Assembly (NCBI GenBank): GCA_009889635.1
Contig: WTZQ01000002.1
Location: 167,729-231,728 of the forward strand
Reading direction: 5' to 3'
Origin: Candidatus Hikarchaeum yamanae
GTDB lineage: Archaea > Halobacteriota > Halobacteria > Halobacteriales > Hikarchaeaceae
Length of the DNA: 64,000 nt
A program made the position numbers and the translations under genes. The notes under the pieces are model-generated. The model was given only the letters and a program-made list of their open reading frames with translations, had not been told where the DNA came from and did not search any database. This document shows, piece by piece, positions 8,953-64,000 of the stretch; the stretch's first letter is position 1; the number at the start of each line of letters is the position of its first letter.

Positions 8953-8975
8953 TTTAAATCAACACATTGGGTGAC

Positions 8976-8982
8976 TTTTTTT
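8976..8982 (+). terminator. oligo-T (T7) archaeal terminator candidate after valS
   Basis: Run of 7 T beginning 24 nt after the valS stop codon, read directly. Confidence 0.4.
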
Positions 8983-9062
8983 CAAACTCCCATAGGATCC
9001 TGTATCTCTCATTTAAGCCAAAACAAGTATATATCTGAAAATCAATAGTCCTTTTACGAAAA

Positions 9063-9884
9063 ATGGATTCTATTTTCAATCGCGATTTGGACTCCACGTT
9101 ACAAACACTTTTTTCTGAAAATATCGGACAAATTTTTTTAATCGGTCCCTCTAAGCGACTAATTACTTCTATAACTAATCTACTATTCACTTCAATTGAC
9201 CCTCCCTCCATTAGAATACTGTCCGATGGGGCCATCATTAAAGAAACGACAAATGATTTTATTACAGCTAGCTATCTATCTGAACTGTCTAGTACTGGAC
9301 TCTTGGAACTCCGAACTGCAGAAACTTTGCCCACGAACGAGCTATTGCTAACTAGCAATTCCCTCATCACTATAATAAACGCCGGAAATTCAACCTTGAC
9401 ACTCACTACCCCTGCCCAACCCATAACCGAAGATGTTTACACCTTCTACAATAATCTGTGGTCTCAATCTATACCTTTCCATATAGCAACTCCTCCCTTC
9501 TCTCTAGTCTTGGATTCGCTTCAGTCCCAATTTGGAACTACTCTCCAATCCGATTTTTCCACCGCTCTTTTCTCTCTCCAAAAACTTCCATCAACCTATG
9601 ACTTTATGGATGAAGTTGCATTGAGTTTACTAATCGCAGCACGCAACCAACTCCTTCTATATGATCTTTCACGCTGGGGCGAAGATATAGGCATTGCAAG
9701 CAGGGCAACTTTTTCACGAACTAAACAACTATTGGAACAACTAAATCTGATTACAACTGAAACGGTTCCGGTTAATGTAGGAAGACCTCGCCTCCGCCTC
9801 CGGCTAACCCACCCCCTGCTCGAGACCTGCCCTCCTGAGAACTTATTAACCACTGCAACCGAATTACTCCCCCGTAATGGATAA
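9063..9884 (+). CDS. conserved haloarchaeal-type winged-helix protein (possibly TbsP/DUF5821-like transcription regulator)
   Basis: 273 aa. The C-terminal segment IASRATFSRTKQLLEQLNLITTETVPVNVGRPRLRLRL looks like an HTH plus wing. The family assignment is from memory only. Lies 25 nt upstream of the YcaO gene on the same strand. Confidence 0.5.
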   Translation: MDSIFNRDLDSTLQTLFSENIGQIFLIGPSKRLITSITNLLFTSIDPPSIRILSDGAIIKETTNDFITASYLSELSSTGLLELRTAETLPTNELLLTSNSLITIINAGNSTLTLTTPAQPITEDVYTFYNNLWSQSIPFHIATPPFSLVLDSLQSQFGTTLQSDFSTALFSLQKLPSTYDFMDEVALSLLIAARNQLLLYDLSRWGEDIGIASRATFSRTKQLLEQLNLITTETVPVNVGRPRLRLRLTHPLLETCPPENLLTTATELLPRNG

Positions 9885-9909
9885 ACATCTGTGATGCACA
9901 AGTTATACC

Positions 9910-11658
9910 GTGAAAATAGGTCTTATCGGAGATGGAGCCACTTCAATTTCCATCGAATTTGCACTCCAACAATCTGAAATCTCCGTCACCCCCATTTCTA
10001 TAGAATCTGTTTCTAAATCTAAATTAAAAGCATTTTCTATGGTTCTGGTAGTTGACAACGTTGGATCTCCACTTTTCGAAAAAGTGAATGATGATATAAC
10101 TACAAGTTGGATCGCAATAGAACTTGGAGGCCTTGGTGGTTACTCCATACCACCTGTCCTCGGTTCAATTTCTCTATTTAACCCTGCCACTGCCTGCTAT
10201 TTATGCCTTCGAGATAGAGTAAAATCAAATTTATCTACTTCGGAAGAATTGAATCCCAAATCTATTATTCCCATTTCCCCATCCTTTGAATCTTTACTTG
10301 GATCCCTTTCCGCATACCTAGTGAACTCCATGCTGAATTTCGATATGACCCATAGCCATGTGTTCGAGATTTCAGATTTATCTATAGAACACATAAGCGG
10401 AGGGAATAGTGCCATCACACATAGACTTTTACTCCCCGTACCTACTTGTTCTTCAAATGACCATTCCTCCACGACCCATATCCCCGGAACCACCATGGAA
10501 CGTGCAGAATATGCAATCGATGAGCGTATCGGAATTATCAATACAATTTCTGAAGCAGAGTCTTTCCCTGCTCCTTATTATCTAGCAAATTTATGCGATA
10601 CAACTTCCTTCACCGCCCAATCAGTCCGAAAACAATCTGCTGGAGTTGCCATCGATTGGGACCAAGCTTTCATTAAGACAATCGGAGAAGCTCTAGAGCG
10701 ATATAGTTCCGGAGTTTACGATCCCGATTCATTCACATCTGGACCCGCTTCTAGTTTCAAAAATTCAATTTCTCCTTCTTCTTTCGTCCAACCCTCTCCT
10801 GATCTTTATAAAGATGAATCAATAGATTGGATTGGTGGAATCGATCTTCATTCCAATGAAACTGTTTTGCTACCTGCAGAATTCGCTGTCTTCCCGTACC
10901 CTTCCGAACAGTATAAACCCGCAATAACCACTGGACTCGCAATAGGGAACTCACTCATAGAAGCCCAACTCTCCGGCCTATACGAAGTTATAGAACGAGA
11001 CGCAACCATGTTGTCCTGGTATTCCAACCGTCCCCCTTCTGCATTTTCACCAGACGATCCTGAGTTCGATCTTTTATCTCAGATGGCCAATTCCAAAGGA
11101 CTCGATTCCACCGTTCTCTTAGTAACTCAAGATATAGATATTCCCGTAGTTACCGTAGCTGTTCATAGATCTTCAAAATGGCCGAAATTCGCTGTAGGTT
11201 CTTGTGCAAATATCAACCCAAATCGTGCAGCAATTGGTGCTCTCTCCGAAGCATTACAGAATTGGATGGAATTACGATCTATGGGTCCTGATACCGCAAA
11301 CAATCAATCATCCGCAATAGGAACTTATTCTAATTTTCCAAAAGAAGCACAATCTTTCATAGGACATAGTGACGCTATCCCCTCAAACGATCTTTCTATT
11401 CCTACTTTCTCCACACGAACTGAAGAGCTATCCTTCCTCCTAACTCACTTACATTCCTTAGATTTGTCTTCTTATTCTGTCCAACTCACTCCTCCTGATA
11501 TCGCCACCATAGGATTCGAAGCCGTTCGTATACTTATCCCCGAGGCACAGCCCCTCTTTTTCGAGAAGCCCTTTTTCGGATCTCGGGCACGCACTGTATC
11601 CGCTTCACTTGGCAACTTTAGATCTAGATTAGATCGACCCCATCATCCCTATCCTTAG
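9910..11658 (+). CDS. fused E1-like (ThiF-like cyclodehydratase domain) / YcaO-domain protein
   Basis: 582 aa, GTG start. The N-terminal ~190 aa has GLIGDGA (Rossmann-like) and a CYLC...R motif, as in TOMM-type ThiF-like domains. The C-terminal part has the YcaO signatures IGEALERYSSG and LYEVIERDA. The protein ends in a proline-rich tail, RPHHPYP-stop. Confidence 0.75.
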   Translation: MKIGLIGDGATSISIEFALQQSEISVTPISIESVSKSKLKAFSMVLVVDNVGSPLFEKVNDDITTSWIAIELGGLGGYSIPPVLGSISLFNPATACYLCLRDRVKSNLSTSEELNPKSIIPISPSFESLLGSLSAYLVNSMLNFDMTHSHVFEISDLSIEHISGGNSAITHRLLLPVPTCSSNDHSSTTHIPGTTMERAEYAIDERIGIINTISEAESFPAPYYLANLCDTTSFTAQSVRKQSAGVAIDWDQAFIKTIGEALERYSSGVYDPDSFTSGPASSFKNSISPSSFVQPSPDLYKDESIDWIGGIDLHSNETVLLPAEFAVFPYPSEQYKPAITTGLAIGNSLIEAQLSGLYEVIERDATMLSWYSNRPPSAFSPDDPEFDLLSQMANSKGLDSTVLLVTQDIDIPVVTVAVHRSSKWPKFAVGSCANINPNRAAIGALSEALQNWMELRSMGPDTANNQSSAIGTYSNFPKEAQSFIGHSDAIPSNDLSIPTFSTRTEELSFLLTHLHSLDLSSYSVQLTPPDIATIGFEAVRILIPEAQPLFFEKPFFGSRARTVSASLGNFRSRLDRPHHPYP

Positions 11659-12887
11659 ATTCCCAAAACCGCTCTTAGTAAATCCCGCATTCCTGGACCT
11701 AAACCCACTGCTATTATTACAATTAAAAGCAAAATAGTCCAGCTCGGGTTTTCTTCCATCGCCTCCTTATCAAAAATATAAATTACTAAAAGTGCAGCAC
11801 CTATCTTGATCACCAAGAACGGCCAAGCCGTTCCTATTATATTTGTTATCCAATCTGGAAACTGGGACCCTATTTCCACCAACCCTCTGTTTATGGGATG
11901 TTTTGGCACTAGATTTTGCTGCATTCCACTTGTTAATCTATACACCCAATCTATGCCCACTACATTTGCAACACCATCTAAAATTTGAGACCATAAAACA
12001 ACCAATCCAATCTCACCTACTCCCTCTGCCATCGTACTACCCCCCCGATTTATCACTCGCCATAAAAACATTGTAATAATGGTTGTCATCACTAATACAA
12101 CCAATGCTATTTCTAAATACAGGTAAACATGAGGCCATGAGAGAACAAGCCAGCCCAGATAACATAATATTGCCCCTGTGAGTCCTGAACCTATTGCAAA
12201 TAGGCTTCGGTTATATTTATCCACAAGTCCCATTCTCTCTAGTTTTACGGAAACTAGTATTGCTACCATTGTGACTAAAAACATAGTCCCATACACCACC
12301 GGGCTTATTAGAAGTATATTAAGTGGATACCCAATCGTAGCTTCTACACCTGCCGGGACGATGTCATTTGCGTCTTCTACAACCCTAAGAGCCCCTCCAA
12401 ATAGCATATATGGGATCAATGAAAAGACTAGTTGCGTATCCAGTTCGATTCCCATCTGTGAGAACATCCTGGCCACTGCAAAAAGCAACAAAACTAGTAT
12501 GAGTGCATATCCAACTTCAGACACGTAGGTATATCCTGGATATGCCACTATTCCTTCTAACTCTGAACACACATTTGCATACTGAACTACTTCAAAACCA
12601 CGGACTAGCTGTCCTCCATACCCTGAAGCAGTAGAAGTCCCCTTCACAGCACAAGCAGATCCGGTTGCATCCGCAAGTATTGGGCCCCAAAAGTAACGCC
12701 AAAAGACGTCATATATTGTTCCTCTAAATATTATACATGGTATTAATACAATGGAAATCAAAGCAATTTTGAACCTAATTGACCACGATCCTAGATTCCC
12801 CCATCTGTCCACAAGCAATTTTAATTTCCCATCTTCTGTAGGTTTCATAATAGTTCTACTTAGATACTTTTTATTTGATTTCAGCAA
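11655..12887 (-). CDS. polytopic membrane protein (DUF63-like archaeal family)
   Basis: 410 aa with about 8-9 hydrophobic segments and a Cys-containing extracytoplasmic loop after TM1. Family name from memory. The start could be the internal Met 14. Confidence 0.55.
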   Translation of the reverse strand: MLKSNKKYLSRTIMKPTEDGKLKLLVDRWGNLGSWSIRFKIALISIVLIPCIIFRGTIYDVFWRYFWGPILADATGSACAVKGTSTASGYGGQLVRGFEVVQYANVCSELEGIVAYPGYTYVSEVGYALILVLLLFAVARMFSQMGIELDTQLVFSLIPYMLFGGALRVVEDANDIVPAGVEATIGYPLNILLISPVVYGTMFLVTMVAILVSVKLERMGLVDKYNRSLFAIGSGLTGAILCYLGWLVLSWPHVYLYLEIALVVLVMTTIITMFLWRVINRGGSTMAEGVGEIGLVVLWSQILDGVANVVGIDWVYRLTSGMQQNLVPKHPINRGLVEIGSQFPDWITNIIGTAWPFLVIKIGAALLVIYIFDKEAMEENPSWTILLLIVIIAVGLGPGMRDLLRAVLGI

Positions 12888-12971: not shown

Positions 12972-13538
12972 TTAAACCAATGACGACGATTGGATGAATT
13001 TTGCACCCGAGCCTTTCATTTCTTTAATCGCGTTGGCACAATCCCCCTGATTTACTTCTACACCTCTAATCAAATCTTCAATCACTGAAGTAGAAAACCC
13101 ATTTTCTACAGCCCCGATCGTGGTCCCGTGAACACAATAATCCGTAGCCAGTCCGCCTATAATCACATTTGATATATTATTTTCTCTTAACTGCTCAGCA
13201 AAATCTGTCCCATCAAAACCAGAATATGCTTCTTCACCAGTTTCAGTACCTTTGTTGATTATACCTACTCTGTCATCAATCAATAATTCTGGATGAAGTC
13301 TAGCCCCCGGGGTCCCCTGAACACAATGAACAGGCCACAATCCCCCATTTGTCTGAAAACTACAGTGATCTAAAGGATGCCAATCCTTTGTAGCATAAAC
13401 GGGTTTTCCCTCTGTATGAAATTTATCTATCATTTCATTAAGTCCCCTGATCACTTCTTCTCCATTCTTAACCTCTAATGGACCACCTTTGCAAAAGTCA
13501 TTCTGTATGTCTACTATTATTAATGCTGTGTCATTCAT
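12972..13538 (-). CDS. pncA: nicotinamidase/pyrazinamidase (isochorismatase family)
   Basis: ALIIVDIQNDFC at the N-terminus, metal/His region DWHPLDHCSF, catalytic Cys in GLATDYCV. ATG at 13538 is preferred over the TTG at 13574 given in the track. Confidence 0.85.
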   Translation of the reverse strand: MNDTALIIVDIQNDFCKGGPLEVKNGEEVIRGLNEMIDKFHTEGKPVYATKDWHPLDHCSFQTNGGLWPVHCVQGTPGARLHPELLIDDRVGIINKGTETGEEAYSGFDGTDFAEQLRENNISNVIIGGLATDYCVHGTTIGAVENGFSTSVIEDLIRGVEVNQGDCANAIKEMKGSGAKFIQSSSLV

Positions 13539-13653
13539 AATTAACAAGACTTTCTTATAGTAGACACCACTCAAAATACCCTCCTATTTAACTCTGGAAA
13601 AATGCATCCAACTTATAGTAAAAATATGGGTGATTTCTACCCTTAACTCTCAG

Positions 13654-13738
13654 TGGGGGGGACAGGATTCGAACCCGTGAACACCTACGTGAGCAGATCT
13701 TGAGTCTGCCGCCTTTGGCCTGGCTTGGCTACCCCCCC
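13654..13738 (-). tRNA. tRNA-Leu (anticodon CAA)
   Basis: Hand-folded 85-nt cloverleaf. The acceptor stem is 7 G-C pairs (GGGGGGG/CCCCCCC) with discriminator A. The anticodon arm is GCAGA-CTCAAGA-TCTGC. The variable arm is 14 nt and the T arm is ACGGG-TTCGAAT-CCTGT. CCA is not encoded and no intron is present. Confidence 0.9.
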
Positions 13739-14982: not shown

Positions 14983-15942
14983 ATGGTTTCACACGGATAT
15001 GTCCTTCCCACCCGTGGTATCACCATGCAGAGTGATTCTTCGATGTCTCTTTCTTCCAATACTGCCGCTTTACTAACTTTAGCTTCCCATGCAGAATCTT
15101 TAGATTTTTCCTCATTGTGGGTTGGAGATAGCATCTTGACAAGATACCGACTGGAACCACTCACCACACTTGCTTCAATAGCAATTTTGACAAAAAAAGT
15201 CCAAATTGGAACTGCAATTTATTTATTACATTTGCGCCATCCCATTCATGTTGCCCATGCAACTGCAACACTTGATCAACTATCTGGTGGAAGATTTATT
15301 TTTGGCGTCGGTGTCGGAACTTCTCATGAATCTACTCTAAACGAAAGCATGAATTTAGGTGTCCCCTTCTCCGAACGTGGAAACATTCTCAATGATTCCC
15401 TCGATCTAATTAGAAATTTGTGGCGTGGGGAAACTGTTAGTTCCCCTGGGATTTACTCCTTTAACGATGCTTGTCTCAACGTTCCTCCCACCCGGGAACC
15501 ACCCATCTATGTGGCAGCCACTAAGTTCGATTCAAAATCTGGTTTTCCAAATTCAATCCAAAAAAGAATAGAACAACACGCAGACGGTTTGATGCCCCAA
15601 ACAGATCCTTCGAACTATTCTAGTATGATCTCTCATGCTCGGGATATCGTGGAAAAATCAGGGAGGGAATCTTCGATTGTTGCAACCAATTATACCGATG
15701 TAGTAATCGCCCCCAGTGAAAAAGAAGCATTTGCCCAAGCTAGGGACTATATAGGCGCTTACTATCCCTGGAATATCCCCGATGCCAATCTGAAAAAAGC
15801 GGGAGTATTTGGACCTCCTGAGATAGTCGCAGAAAAAATACATTCATTCATTGATGCTGGTGTTGAACATTTCATAGTCCGCTTCCCCACACTTGATCAA
15901 AAAAATCAACTAGATTTGTATTCTGACCTATTCAATCTATAG
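14983..15942 (+). CDS. luciferase-like monooxygenase (LLM) family flavin/F420-dependent oxidoreductase
   Basis: 319 aa. Pattern LWVGDS...RLEPLTTLA...LDQLSGGRFIFGVGVG is typical of the LLM TIM-barrel family. Confidence 0.7.
   Translation: MVSHGYVLPTRGITMQSDSSMSLSSNTAALLTLASHAESLDFSSLWVGDSILTRYRLEPLTTLASIAILTKKVQIGTAIYLLHLRHPIHVAHATATLDQLSGGRFIFGVGVGTSHESTLNESMNLGVPFSERGNILNDSLDLIRNLWRGETVSSPGIYSFNDACLNVPPTREPPIYVAATKFDSKSGFPNSIQKRIEQHADGLMPQTDPSNYSSMISHARDIVEKSGRESSIVATNYTDVVIAPSEKEAFAQARDYIGAYYPWNIPDANLKKAGVFGPPEIVAEKIHSFIDAGVEHFIVRFPTLDQKNQLDLYSDLFNL

Positions 15943-62045: not shown

Positions 62046-64000
<1,955 letters not shown>

Follow-up and report, generated by a model that had tools for sequence, protein, structure and literature searches.

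We analyzed a window of 64,000 nucleotides from Candidatus Hikarchaeum yamanae (contig WTZQ01000002.1) and identified, at positions 9063-11658, a gene for a YcaO-type cyclodehydratase (ycaO) lying directly behind a gene for the transcription regulator TbsP (tbsP). The YcaO protein is an ortholog of the short fused cyclodehydratase of the "haloazolisins". The family has been known since 2015, and the locus is a rediscovery of a described family and not a new system. What is added here is the occurrence in Hikarchaeia, a LynD-like architecture that lacks the recognition element (RRE) of enzymes for RiPPs (peptides that ribosomes make and that are then modified post-translationally), a quantified synteny with tbsP and with a gene for a DUF63 membrane protein, and an explicit link to TbsP. 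We favor the reading that the gene, placed behind tbsP, encodes a catalytically active enzyme of the cyclodehydratase type, one that activates amides and whose target is a conserved cellular substrate with its gene in another place, and consider this reading probable. Family membership, fold, residue conservation, synteny and purifying selection are demonstrated here, while activity, chemistry, the kind of substrate and co-transcription are deduced. An earlier note on this DNA had singled out the pair; its observation is confirmed, including the two open reading frames (ORFs) of 273 and 582 aa set 25 nt apart, and its interpretation is partly supported. 

The family was described by Cox, Doroghazi & Mitchell (2015), who named close to 100 such loci in halophilic archaea "haloazolisins", observed that the C domain is barely recognizable, with ~200 N-terminal residues missing, and suspected that another uncharacterized protein binds the substrate (PMC4603692). 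Costa et al. (2023) subsequently reported ycaO in all haloarchaeal genomes, surrounded by neighbors of unknown function; the preceding ORF and an upstream serine hydroxymethyltransferase gene recur (PMC9953058). In that study the proposed precursors were not conserved even within Haloferax, some of them overlapping folD or carrying stop codons, and a Hfx. mediterranei ΔycaO strain was viable and retained its anti-haloarchaeal antagonism, with Fourier-transform infrared spectra that showed a shift in lipid-associated bands (PMC9953058). The orphan status that had been given to the gene does not hold: it belongs to the haloazolisin family (PMC4603692) and in that sense is the known haloazolisin-type locus that the note had named as a refutation, although no precursor/dehydrogenase set was found. 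With haloazolisin-type YcaOs it shares a length of ~570 aa, the short E1-like domain joined to a YcaO domain, the invariant motifs and terminal tail, the tbsP and DUF63 flanks and the standing of a chromosomal core gene. Unlike them, it comes from Marine Group IV (MG-IV)/Hikarchaeia, a non-halophilic host, whereas haloazolisins are defined by a halophilic one; the window has a GC content of 41%, its proteins are only moderately acidic, and the YcaO protein is Ser/Thr-rich and not acidic. The window copy also differs in having an insertion of ~14 aa, Ser in place of the fourth zinc-site Cys, and a gap of 25 nt behind tbsP compared with ~50-100 nt in Halobacteria.

We surveyed one genome per GTDB species and obtained 513 confirmed ycaO loci, the best 80 of which provide all neighborhood counts given here. 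Full-length homologs with 40-45% identity (E ~1e-130 to 1e-140) occur across Halobacteria, in hosts that include Halorussus, Halohasta, Haloferax and Natrinema. The closest loci (66-92% identity) are found in metagenome-assembled genomes (MAGs) of MG-IV/Hikarchaeia, including HikBin4 and HikBin5, and this corrects the earlier placement of the host in Halobacteria proper, as Hikarchaeia are the marine, non-halophilic sister of Haloarchaea (PMC7599335). The ortholog is essentially absent from plasmids. tbsP stands directly upstream of ycaO, on the same strand, in 67-69 of the 80 loci (median gap 49 nt, compared with 25 nt in the window), so that the adjacency to the winged-helix gene is indeed strongly conserved in relatives, and DUF63 follows in convergent orientation, ~0-600 nt from the ycaO stop, in ~47 of them. 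Other recurrent neighbors are glyA, folD, an inositol monophosphatase gene and an Lrp/AsnC regulator gene, none of which is a RiPP-cluster gene. The valS/gnd/pncA/methyltransferase context, on the other hand, is confined to MG-IV. Since the synteny is common to MG-IV and Halobacteria, the tbsP-ycaO-DUF63 triad predates the split between Hikarchaeia and Haloarchaea. Loci in which ycaO is not adjacent to tbsP are mainly those of Natrialbaceae, where both genes persist. HVO_2859 of Haloferax volcanii is catalogued as a DUF63 protein (PMC9426492), which, combined with the gene order in Haloferax loci, implies that HVO_2859 (DUF63), HVO_2860 (YcaO) and HVO_2861 (TbsP) make up the corresponding locus; in the literature searched we found no mention of HVO_2860 or HVO_2862. 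Aside from these genes, a conserved ORF of ~690-709 aa without a Pfam match lies ~1 kb upstream of ycaO, between glyA and tbsP, in one haloarchaeal locus (L039, 1793-3922, + strand) and in 26 others. It is a candidate gene or, alternatively, a long shadow ORF in GC-rich DNA.

The architecture proposed earlier, a short E1-like domain followed by a YcaO domain, is right, the first domain by fold and the second by profile. The YcaO domain matches PF02624 (Pfam; E=1.4e-49, aa 245-546) and, at 226.6 bits for a cutoff of 219.25, the SagD family model TIGR03604, whose positions 1-377 cover aa 245-582, down to the last residue of the protein. Both the McrA-thioamidase model TIGR03266 (methan_mark_1; 94.5 bits, cutoff 365) and the E. 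coli-type YcaO model TIGR00702 (68.3 bits, cutoff 75.65) score below their cutoffs. In profile searches of the PDB the domain matches MJ1094 (3e-27), TruD (2e-23) and LynD (2e-23). The N-terminal 244 residues had no Pfam or NCBIfam match at E<=1 in the whole-protein scan. When the N-domains of 30 family members were scanned one at a time, 17 matched TIGR03882, the model for the leader peptide-binding protein of precursors of thiazole/oxazole-modified microcins (TOMMs), with a best E of 1.2e-5, and nine matched TIGR03603, while the sole profile match of the window copy was to TIGR03603 at E=0.14 (11.8 bits, cutoff 187.65). By profile, then, this domain stays well under the cutoffs and shows a weak relationship to the TOMM C-protein models.

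By fold, this domain is E1-like. An AlphaFold2 (AF2) model of residues 1-240 has a predicted local distance difference test score (pLDDT) >87 to ~residue 180, and its top Foldseek matches in the PDB are the E1 folds of Cap2, SAE1 and Uba1 (probability 1.0, TM 0.40-0.46). The full-length model (pLDDT 92.8, predicted TM score 0.92) finds LynD as its top PDB match (E=2e-34, TM 0.71 over ~680 columns), then MusD and TruD, with YcaO-only structures ranking below these. Within this model the counterparts of the N-domain are domain 2 of LynD/TruD/MusD and McbB, and β1 of the Rossmann-like domain begins at residue 2. The ycaO frame opens past a TGA at 9892-9894, GTG is the earliest in-frame start, and the N-terminus that results, MKIGLIGDG, is in register with those of all homologs. 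No PqqD/RRE profile match at E<=1 was found in the YcaO protein in the Pfam scan. The protein is therefore a fusion of E1-like and YcaO domains in the manner of LynD, with domain 1 (the RRE) missing. In a tblastn search, residues 39-582 aligned to neighboring C and D genes on a Clostridium plasmid, where they form part of a canonical TOMM cluster. That cluster also encodes SagB, a radical SAM enzyme and an ABC transporter and so shows what the Hikarchaeum locus is without. As a separate observation, ~14 extra residues, DLSIEHISGGNSAI, are inserted into the E1-like domain of the MG-IV copies at aa ~155-170 (nt ~10372-10480 span aa 155-190), and these copies do not have the stretch of ~8 residues that follows the CxC motif in Halobacteria (aa 180-190).

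All motifs named in the earlier note were found at the expected residues (Table 1), and conservation counts from an alignment of 94 YcaO homologs single out the same positions. K256, E260, E263, R264 and Y265 of the first acidic motif are invariant, as are E359, E362, R363, D364 and A365 of the second and T340/T341/G342 between them; in the N-domain the invariant residues are G7, W67, E71, G73/G74, C96, C99, R103, P178 and C180. McbB has the same CxxC...CxC spacing in its structural zinc site, C192/C195/C290/C292 (PMC6395948), and the first half of the pattern aligns with the CxxC of TruD (201-230). The C-terminal H-P-[Y/F]-P is present in 94/94 homologs, with H579, P580 and P582 invariant and Y or F at position 581. 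In McbD, LynD and BalhD the terminal Pro enters the active site, is needed for normal heterocyclization and has been proposed as a general base, and Ec-YcaO is without it (PMC6395948); the earlier note is thus right on the proline tail, which is conserved. The ycaO ORF is intact in all seven MG-IV loci, and a ratio of nonsynonymous to synonymous substitution rates (dN/dS) of 0.15-0.17 in comparison with four MG-IV relatives indicates clear purifying selection.

With these motifs in place, the enzyme most likely has catalytic activity. ATP/Mg2+ would be bound via the two invariant Glu-x-x-Glu-Arg motifs, and a backbone amide oxygen of the substrate would be phosphorylated. The C-terminal Pro carboxylate, inserted as it is in McbD and LynD, would then help a neighboring Cys, Ser or Thr to attack, and an azoline (-18 Da) would form. 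For the E1-like domain, stabilized through a Cys-based metal site, the expected role is that of activating and docking partner to the YcaO domain. Azoline rather than thioamide chemistry is suggested by the SagD-type profile and the Pro tail. A SagB/ThcOx-type FMN dehydrogenase is required for azoles and optional for azolines.

The kind of substrate can be approached from what surrounds the gene. The inventory of the window comprises 56 long ORFs, about half of them profile-searched and the remainder judged by eye, and this inspection turned up no SagB/nitroreductase-type dehydrogenase, TfuA, ABC exporter or second E1-like protein; the earlier statement that dehydrogenase, precursor and exporter are lacking nearby holds for the full 64 kb. 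The intergenic gaps in the valS-tbsP-ycaO-DUF63-pncA block are only 110, 25, 0 and 84 nt and therefore leave no room for a free-standing precursor gene. Likewise, no conserved family of small ORFs lies beside ycaO in the 80 loci, except for shadow ORFs that overlap known genes. Vertical inheritance, core status and synteny of the gene, together with the lack of precursor, dehydrogenase and exporter, make a conserved cellular protein or peptide with its gene elsewhere a likelier substrate than a secreted antimicrobial. A protein is favored by precedent: of the two YcaOs known to modify proteins, one acts on McrA (PMC5589413), and the other, E. coli YcaO, thioamidates uL16 after recognizing it as a folded protein (reported in 2026; PMC13063428). 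The suggestion already made for this DNA, that a core-genome YcaO may act on a protein, agrees with the uL16 case and with the doubts expressed by Costa et al. (PMC9953058). Given that the gene and the tbsP/DUF63 arrangement were already present in the ancestor of Haloarchaea and Hikarchaeia, its role is neither an adaptation of halophiles nor a strain-specific antibiotic.

Characterized enzymes resemble the YcaO protein in part. LynD, TruD, PatD and MusD (RRE + E1-like + YcaO; 4V1T, 4BS9, 7U58) share both of its domains (TM 0.63-0.71), a CxxC at the equivalent E1-like site, the Glu motifs for ATP/Mg and the C-terminal Pro tail; the window protein, however, is ~200 residues shorter, has no N-terminal RRE, is only 16-18% identical, and its gene is not clustered with a precursor, protease or oxidase. 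In the case of the microcin B17 synthetase, the N-domain matches McbB and the C-domain McbD, with the same Cys spacing and a terminal Pro, but the window protein is fused and has neither a McbC dehydrogenase nor a McbA-like precursor beside it. MJ1094, the McrA-glycine thioamidase, and E. coli YcaO, the uL16 Met82 thioamidase, are similar in being housekeeping, vertically inherited and without an RRE, and their substrates are folded proteins encoded elsewhere. Both nonetheless lack the E1-like domain and the terminal Pro tail, and Ec-YcaO has a C-terminal TPR dimerization domain where the window protein ends with its Pro tail right after the YcaO domain.

The gene upstream of ycaO had been described as TbsP-like, and this proved correct. 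Its product matches PF19138 (TbsP_N; E=6.7e-27, aa 4-144) and PF23336 (HTH_TbsP_C; E=1.2e-39, aa 145-265). The score with NCBIfam NF047393 is below the cutoff (257.4 bits, cutoff 300), yet the conserved position beside ycaO supports orthology to HVO_2861. Compared with the latter, the window protein has both Pfam domains at full length, a similar size (273 and 275 aa) and the same place upstream of ycaO, and differs in sequence (~37% identity) as well as in the NF047393 shortfall. TbsP of Hfx. volcanii was characterized in 2024 as a ΔtrmB suppressor that co-regulates gapII; it is a DNA-binding regulator with peaks in chromatin immunoprecipitation sequencing (ChIP-seq), an AT-rich motif, specific target promoters and a regulon (PMC11023807). 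Sequence-specific binding and a regulon have been demonstrated in this species only. That paper makes no mention of YcaO, and Costa et al. do not name TbsP (PMC11023807; PMC9953058). Residue counts in 68 TbsP sequences show that the basic recognition helix S213-K221 (in ASRATFSRTK) and the wing V239-L246 (VGRPRLRL) are invariant, and that 51 of the 68 proteins are devoid of Cys.

A block of 40 nt ahead of tbsP, with a TATA-like AAGTATATAT ~30 nt upstream of the start codon, is near-invariant across all seven MG-IV loci, including L003, against synonymous differences (pS) of 0.5-0.69 in the flanking genes. The spacer between tbsP and ycaO shows 0-1 difference per 25 nt in comparison with L001, L002 and L004-L007, and 5/25 with L003. 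Synonymous sites in the flanking genes, by contrast, differ by 22-69% among MG-IV loci and are near saturation, so the near-invariance of block and spacer points to constrained regulatory sequence. The block is a putative promoter, and for the spacer an internal promoter and a translation-coupling element are both candidates. Co-expression of tbsP and ycaO is plausible, and the tandem would most simply reflect shared expression or regulation rather than a role of TbsP as a peptide-recognition subunit. CATC-TGT-GATG, a short inverted repeat, also lies in the spacer. Matches to the published TbsP motif WGAAATWAASTC number 49 in the window where 55 are expected, so that the motif shows no enrichment. 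A one-mismatch WGAAATWAASTC site at 8973-8984 was considered as an operator and rejected, since it is not kept in the sister loci and resembles the T-run after valS. A ChIP-seq peak of OxsR, a thiol-based oxidative-stress regulator, has been reported at HVO_2859 (PMC9426492) and is a possible lead toward redox stress.

A number of points weigh against the reading of an active cyclodehydratase with a cellular substrate, or against parts of it. TIGR03604 is passed by only 7 bits, and the best PDB sequence match of the YcaO domain is the thioamide-forming MJ1094, so that a thioamide may be the product instead. C182, conserved in at least 90% of the 94 homologs, is Ser in the window copy and its MG-IV relatives, meaning that the fourth Cys of the presumed zinc site is lost. 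The dN/dS of ycaO is 2-3 times that of valS, gnd and tbsP (0.04-0.09), and this faster evolution could reflect relaxed constraint in MG-IV. No product or substrate has been reported for any haloarchaeal member of the family (PMC4603692, PMC9953058), while Cox et al. did report 31 candidate Ser-rich precursors near some haloarchaeal copies (PMC4603692). Directly upstream of ycaO in Natrialbaceae, and on its strand, lie genes for a TetR regulator, a MATE efflux pump and sometimes a cation/proton antiporter in place of tbsP (L066 3815-5916, L080 3028-5934, L058 and L082, from Natrinema, Haloterrigena and Haloarchaeobius), an arrangement that looks somewhat like a biosynthetic cluster. As for co-transcription of the pair, the conservation of leader and spacer is compatible with an operon and with an internal promoter alike.

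Some of these points lend themselves to a classical TOMM, a "haloazolisin" proper, in which a distant small Ser/Cys-rich precursor is heterocyclized to give a secreted or signaling RiPP. A TIGR03604 score above the cutoff, an azoline-type tail, RiPP heterocyclases as the best fold matches, the 31 candidate precursors (PMC4603692) and the TetR and MATE genes of Natrialbaceae are all in keeping with such a system. We nevertheless regard it as unlikely, given that the window locus offers no RRE, dehydrogenase, protease, exporter or intergenic space for a precursor, that universal occurrence, a chromosomal location and synteny set the gene apart from RiPP clusters (PMC9953058), and that the precursors are unconserved within Haloferax and the ΔycaO strain keeps its antagonism (PMC9953058). 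Another possibility is that the enzyme performs a different YcaO chemistry on a protein, forming a thioamide (or amidine), with the E1-like domain docking a thiocarboxylate carrier of the SAMP/ThiS type in place of TfuA. E1 folds ordinarily bind ubiquitin-like proteins, which would suit such docking of a sulfur carrier, and single family members match MoeB or UbaA faintly (E=0.06-0.09), although in 1/30 members only, and docking is speculation. Also in its favor are the MJ1094 match and the fact that both known protein-modifying YcaOs form thioamides (PMC5589413, PMC13063428). TIGR03266, however, falls far short of its cutoff, no TfuA-like gene is found among the neighbors in the window or in the 80 loci, and the invariant terminal Pro is a hallmark of azoline formers that Ec-YcaO does not have (PMC6395948); this chemistry is in our view quite unlikely.

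The earlier note had raised a more direct role for the winged-helix protein, as the detached recognition element of YcaO, and a variant of this idea would make TbsP its substrate. The same-strand adjacency with gaps of 25 to ~100 nt in ~68/80 loci, from MG-IV to Halobacteria, invites such a view, as does the gene order (winged helix-turn-helix, then E1-like, then YcaO), which parallels the domain order of LynD with its winged helix before the E1-like domain. The RRE fold is itself a winged helix (PMC6395948), the two families essentially do not extend beyond the same lineages, and an unidentified recognition protein is what Cox et al. suspected (PMC4603692). The evidence on TbsP itself speaks otherwise: it binds promoters in vivo and has a regulon (PMC11023807), the recognition helix and Arg-rich wing are invariant, as DNA binding predicts, no PqqD/RRE profile matched TbsP at E<=1 in the Pfam scan, most TbsPs are without Cys, and the adjacency is lost in Natrialbaceae though both genes remain (PMC9953058). 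No TbsP-YcaO fusion was present among the best 150 of 438 cluster representatives from a search of 1.84 billion such representatives; P0223 (598 aa), the only long TbsP match, was discarded as a fusion since its N-terminal extension has no Pfam domain. We consider a recognition or substrate role of TbsP very unlikely. Finally, ycaO might be non-catalytic or decaying in MG-IV, either a scaffold or a relic heading for loss. The highest dN/dS of its neighborhood, a Ser/Thr-rich composition drifting with the mutational bias of the strand, the loss of the fourth zinc-site Cys and the viability of the Hfx. mediterranei knockout (PMC9953058) would fit. With an intact ORF in seven MG-IV loci, a dN/dS of 0.15 that is far under 1, all catalytic motifs and the terminal tail kept and a confident AF2 model, however, decay appears extremely unlikely.

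In a broader idea, tbsP-ycaO(-DUF63) would be an ancient functional module, older than the Hikarchaeia-Haloarchaea split, in which the RiPP-type cyclodehydratase was co-opted to modify the backbone of a cellular protein with an azoline or thioamide, be it TbsP or a component of the TrmB/TbsP gluconeogenic switch. We judge this rather unlikely. If true, some phenotypes that have been attributed in Haloferax to lesions of tbsP may hinge on ycaO, via polarity or modification, and the enzyme would be a third protein-modifying YcaO and the first to use an E1-like domain. In any case, the link to TbsP provides a concrete hypothesis in a tractable model, HVO_2859-2861 of Hfx. volcanii, and the recent demonstration that E. 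coli YcaO thioamidates uL16 makes the hunt for protein substrates of housekeeping YcaOs timely.

Table 1. Features of the tbsP-ycaO locus and its surroundings (positions refer to the 64,000-nt window; residue numbers refer to the YcaO protein).
Feature	Position	Strand	Description
Leader/promoter-like block	9023..9062	+	TATA-like AAGTATATAT at ~9026-9036, then ctgaaaaYcaatagtccYtttacgaaaa
tbsP-like gene	9063..9884	+	273 aa, ATG start; TbsP_N and C-terminal winged helix-turn-helix
tbsP-ycaO spacer	9885..9909	+	25 nt between the ORFs
ycaO ORF	9910..11658	+	582 aa, GTG start
Degenerate E1-like (C-protein-like) domain and linker	9910..10641	+	aa 1-244; no RRE ahead
GDG		+	residues 7-9, read in the sequence
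CYLCLRDR	10195..10218	+	residues 96-103, holding C96-x-x-C99-L-R-x-R103; first half of presumed structural zinc site
P176-x-P178-x-C180	10435-10455	+	second half of presumed zinc site
YcaO (D-protein) domain	10642..11655	+	aa 245-582; PF02624, TIGR03604 and PDB profile matches
K256-T-I-G-E260-A-L-E263-R264-Y265	10675..10704	+	first acidic ATP/Mg2+ motif
Y358-E359-V-I-E362-R363-D364-A365	10981..11004	+	second acidic ATP/Mg2+ motif; aligns with TruD 'MELVERDS'
H579-P580-Y581-P582	11644..11655	+	free terminal carboxylate; tail RLDRPHHPYP, residues 573-582
DUF63 family membrane protein	11655..12887	-	410 aa; PF01889 E=1.6e-39; convergent with ycaO; HVO_2859 homolog
pncA-like isochorismatase/nicotinamidase gene	12972-13574		PF00857; NF008623 165 bits, slightly under cutoff 174
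tRNA-Leu(CAA)	13653-13738		in the 326-nt gap downstream of the pncA-like gene
LLM-class F420/FMN oxidoreductase	14983-15942	+	best match TIGR03619, under its cutoff

The remaining genes of the window give a housekeeping picture. The neighbors named earlier were recovered: valS adjoins the pair (NF009687, 996.6 bits), the stop codons of DUF63 and ycaO overlap at ORF coordinates 11655-11658 by direct reading of the sequence, and the gene taken for pncA is nicotinamidase-like. Further out lie a gene for an N6/N4 DNA methyltransferase and, over the rest of the 64 kb, genes for RFC, phosphoglucomutase, dap/lys functions, purB, folC/P, egsA, gltB, proS, a β-CASP RNase, ftsZ, aroE, anthranilate synthase and HMG-CoA reductase-like proteins. 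The LLM-class oxidoreductase was considered as a substitute dehydrogenase and set aside: it is a luciferase-like F420/FMN enzyme of another fold family, not of the SagB type, it is syntenic in MG-IV only, and it lies 3.3 kb downstream of ycaO, past three unrelated genes. In a lineage that no longer carries out methanogenesis, enzymes of the F420 type may merit interest in their own right.

The pncA-like gene is nearly identical to the copies in L004 and L001 (synonymous divergence, dS, of 0.016-0.024), whereas the genes that flank it have a dS of 0.12-1.1 in comparison with the same loci, and it is missing from the corresponding position in L002. This contrast and the absence in L002 look like recent transfer or recombination near the tRNA gene. 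Another observation concerns strand composition. Third-position GC skew is -0.25 to -0.6 in every + strand gene and +0.24 to +0.65 in every - strand gene, and cumulative GC skew drops monotonically across 1-64000, the + strand being C-rich irrespective of gene orientation; a single long replichore under a strong mutational bias is suggested by such window-wide asymmetry. Among the + strand genes, tbsP (-0.32) and ycaO (-0.24) reach the most negative GC skew on the coding strand, and their products are unusually rich in Ser and Thr (23% for TbsP and 20% for YcaO, in which Ser accounts for 83 of the 582 residues). The composition of the two genes thus seems to follow the strand bias more than that of their neighbors, which fits the raised dN/dS of ycaO. 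Near the end of the window, three ORFs of 122-190 aa at 62159-63952 on the - strand stand out by their GC content (0.46), a Ser+Thr content of 24-30% and a GC skew near zero; no Rfam match was found there, and the ORFs are probably the shadow of a + strand gene that runs past the window end.

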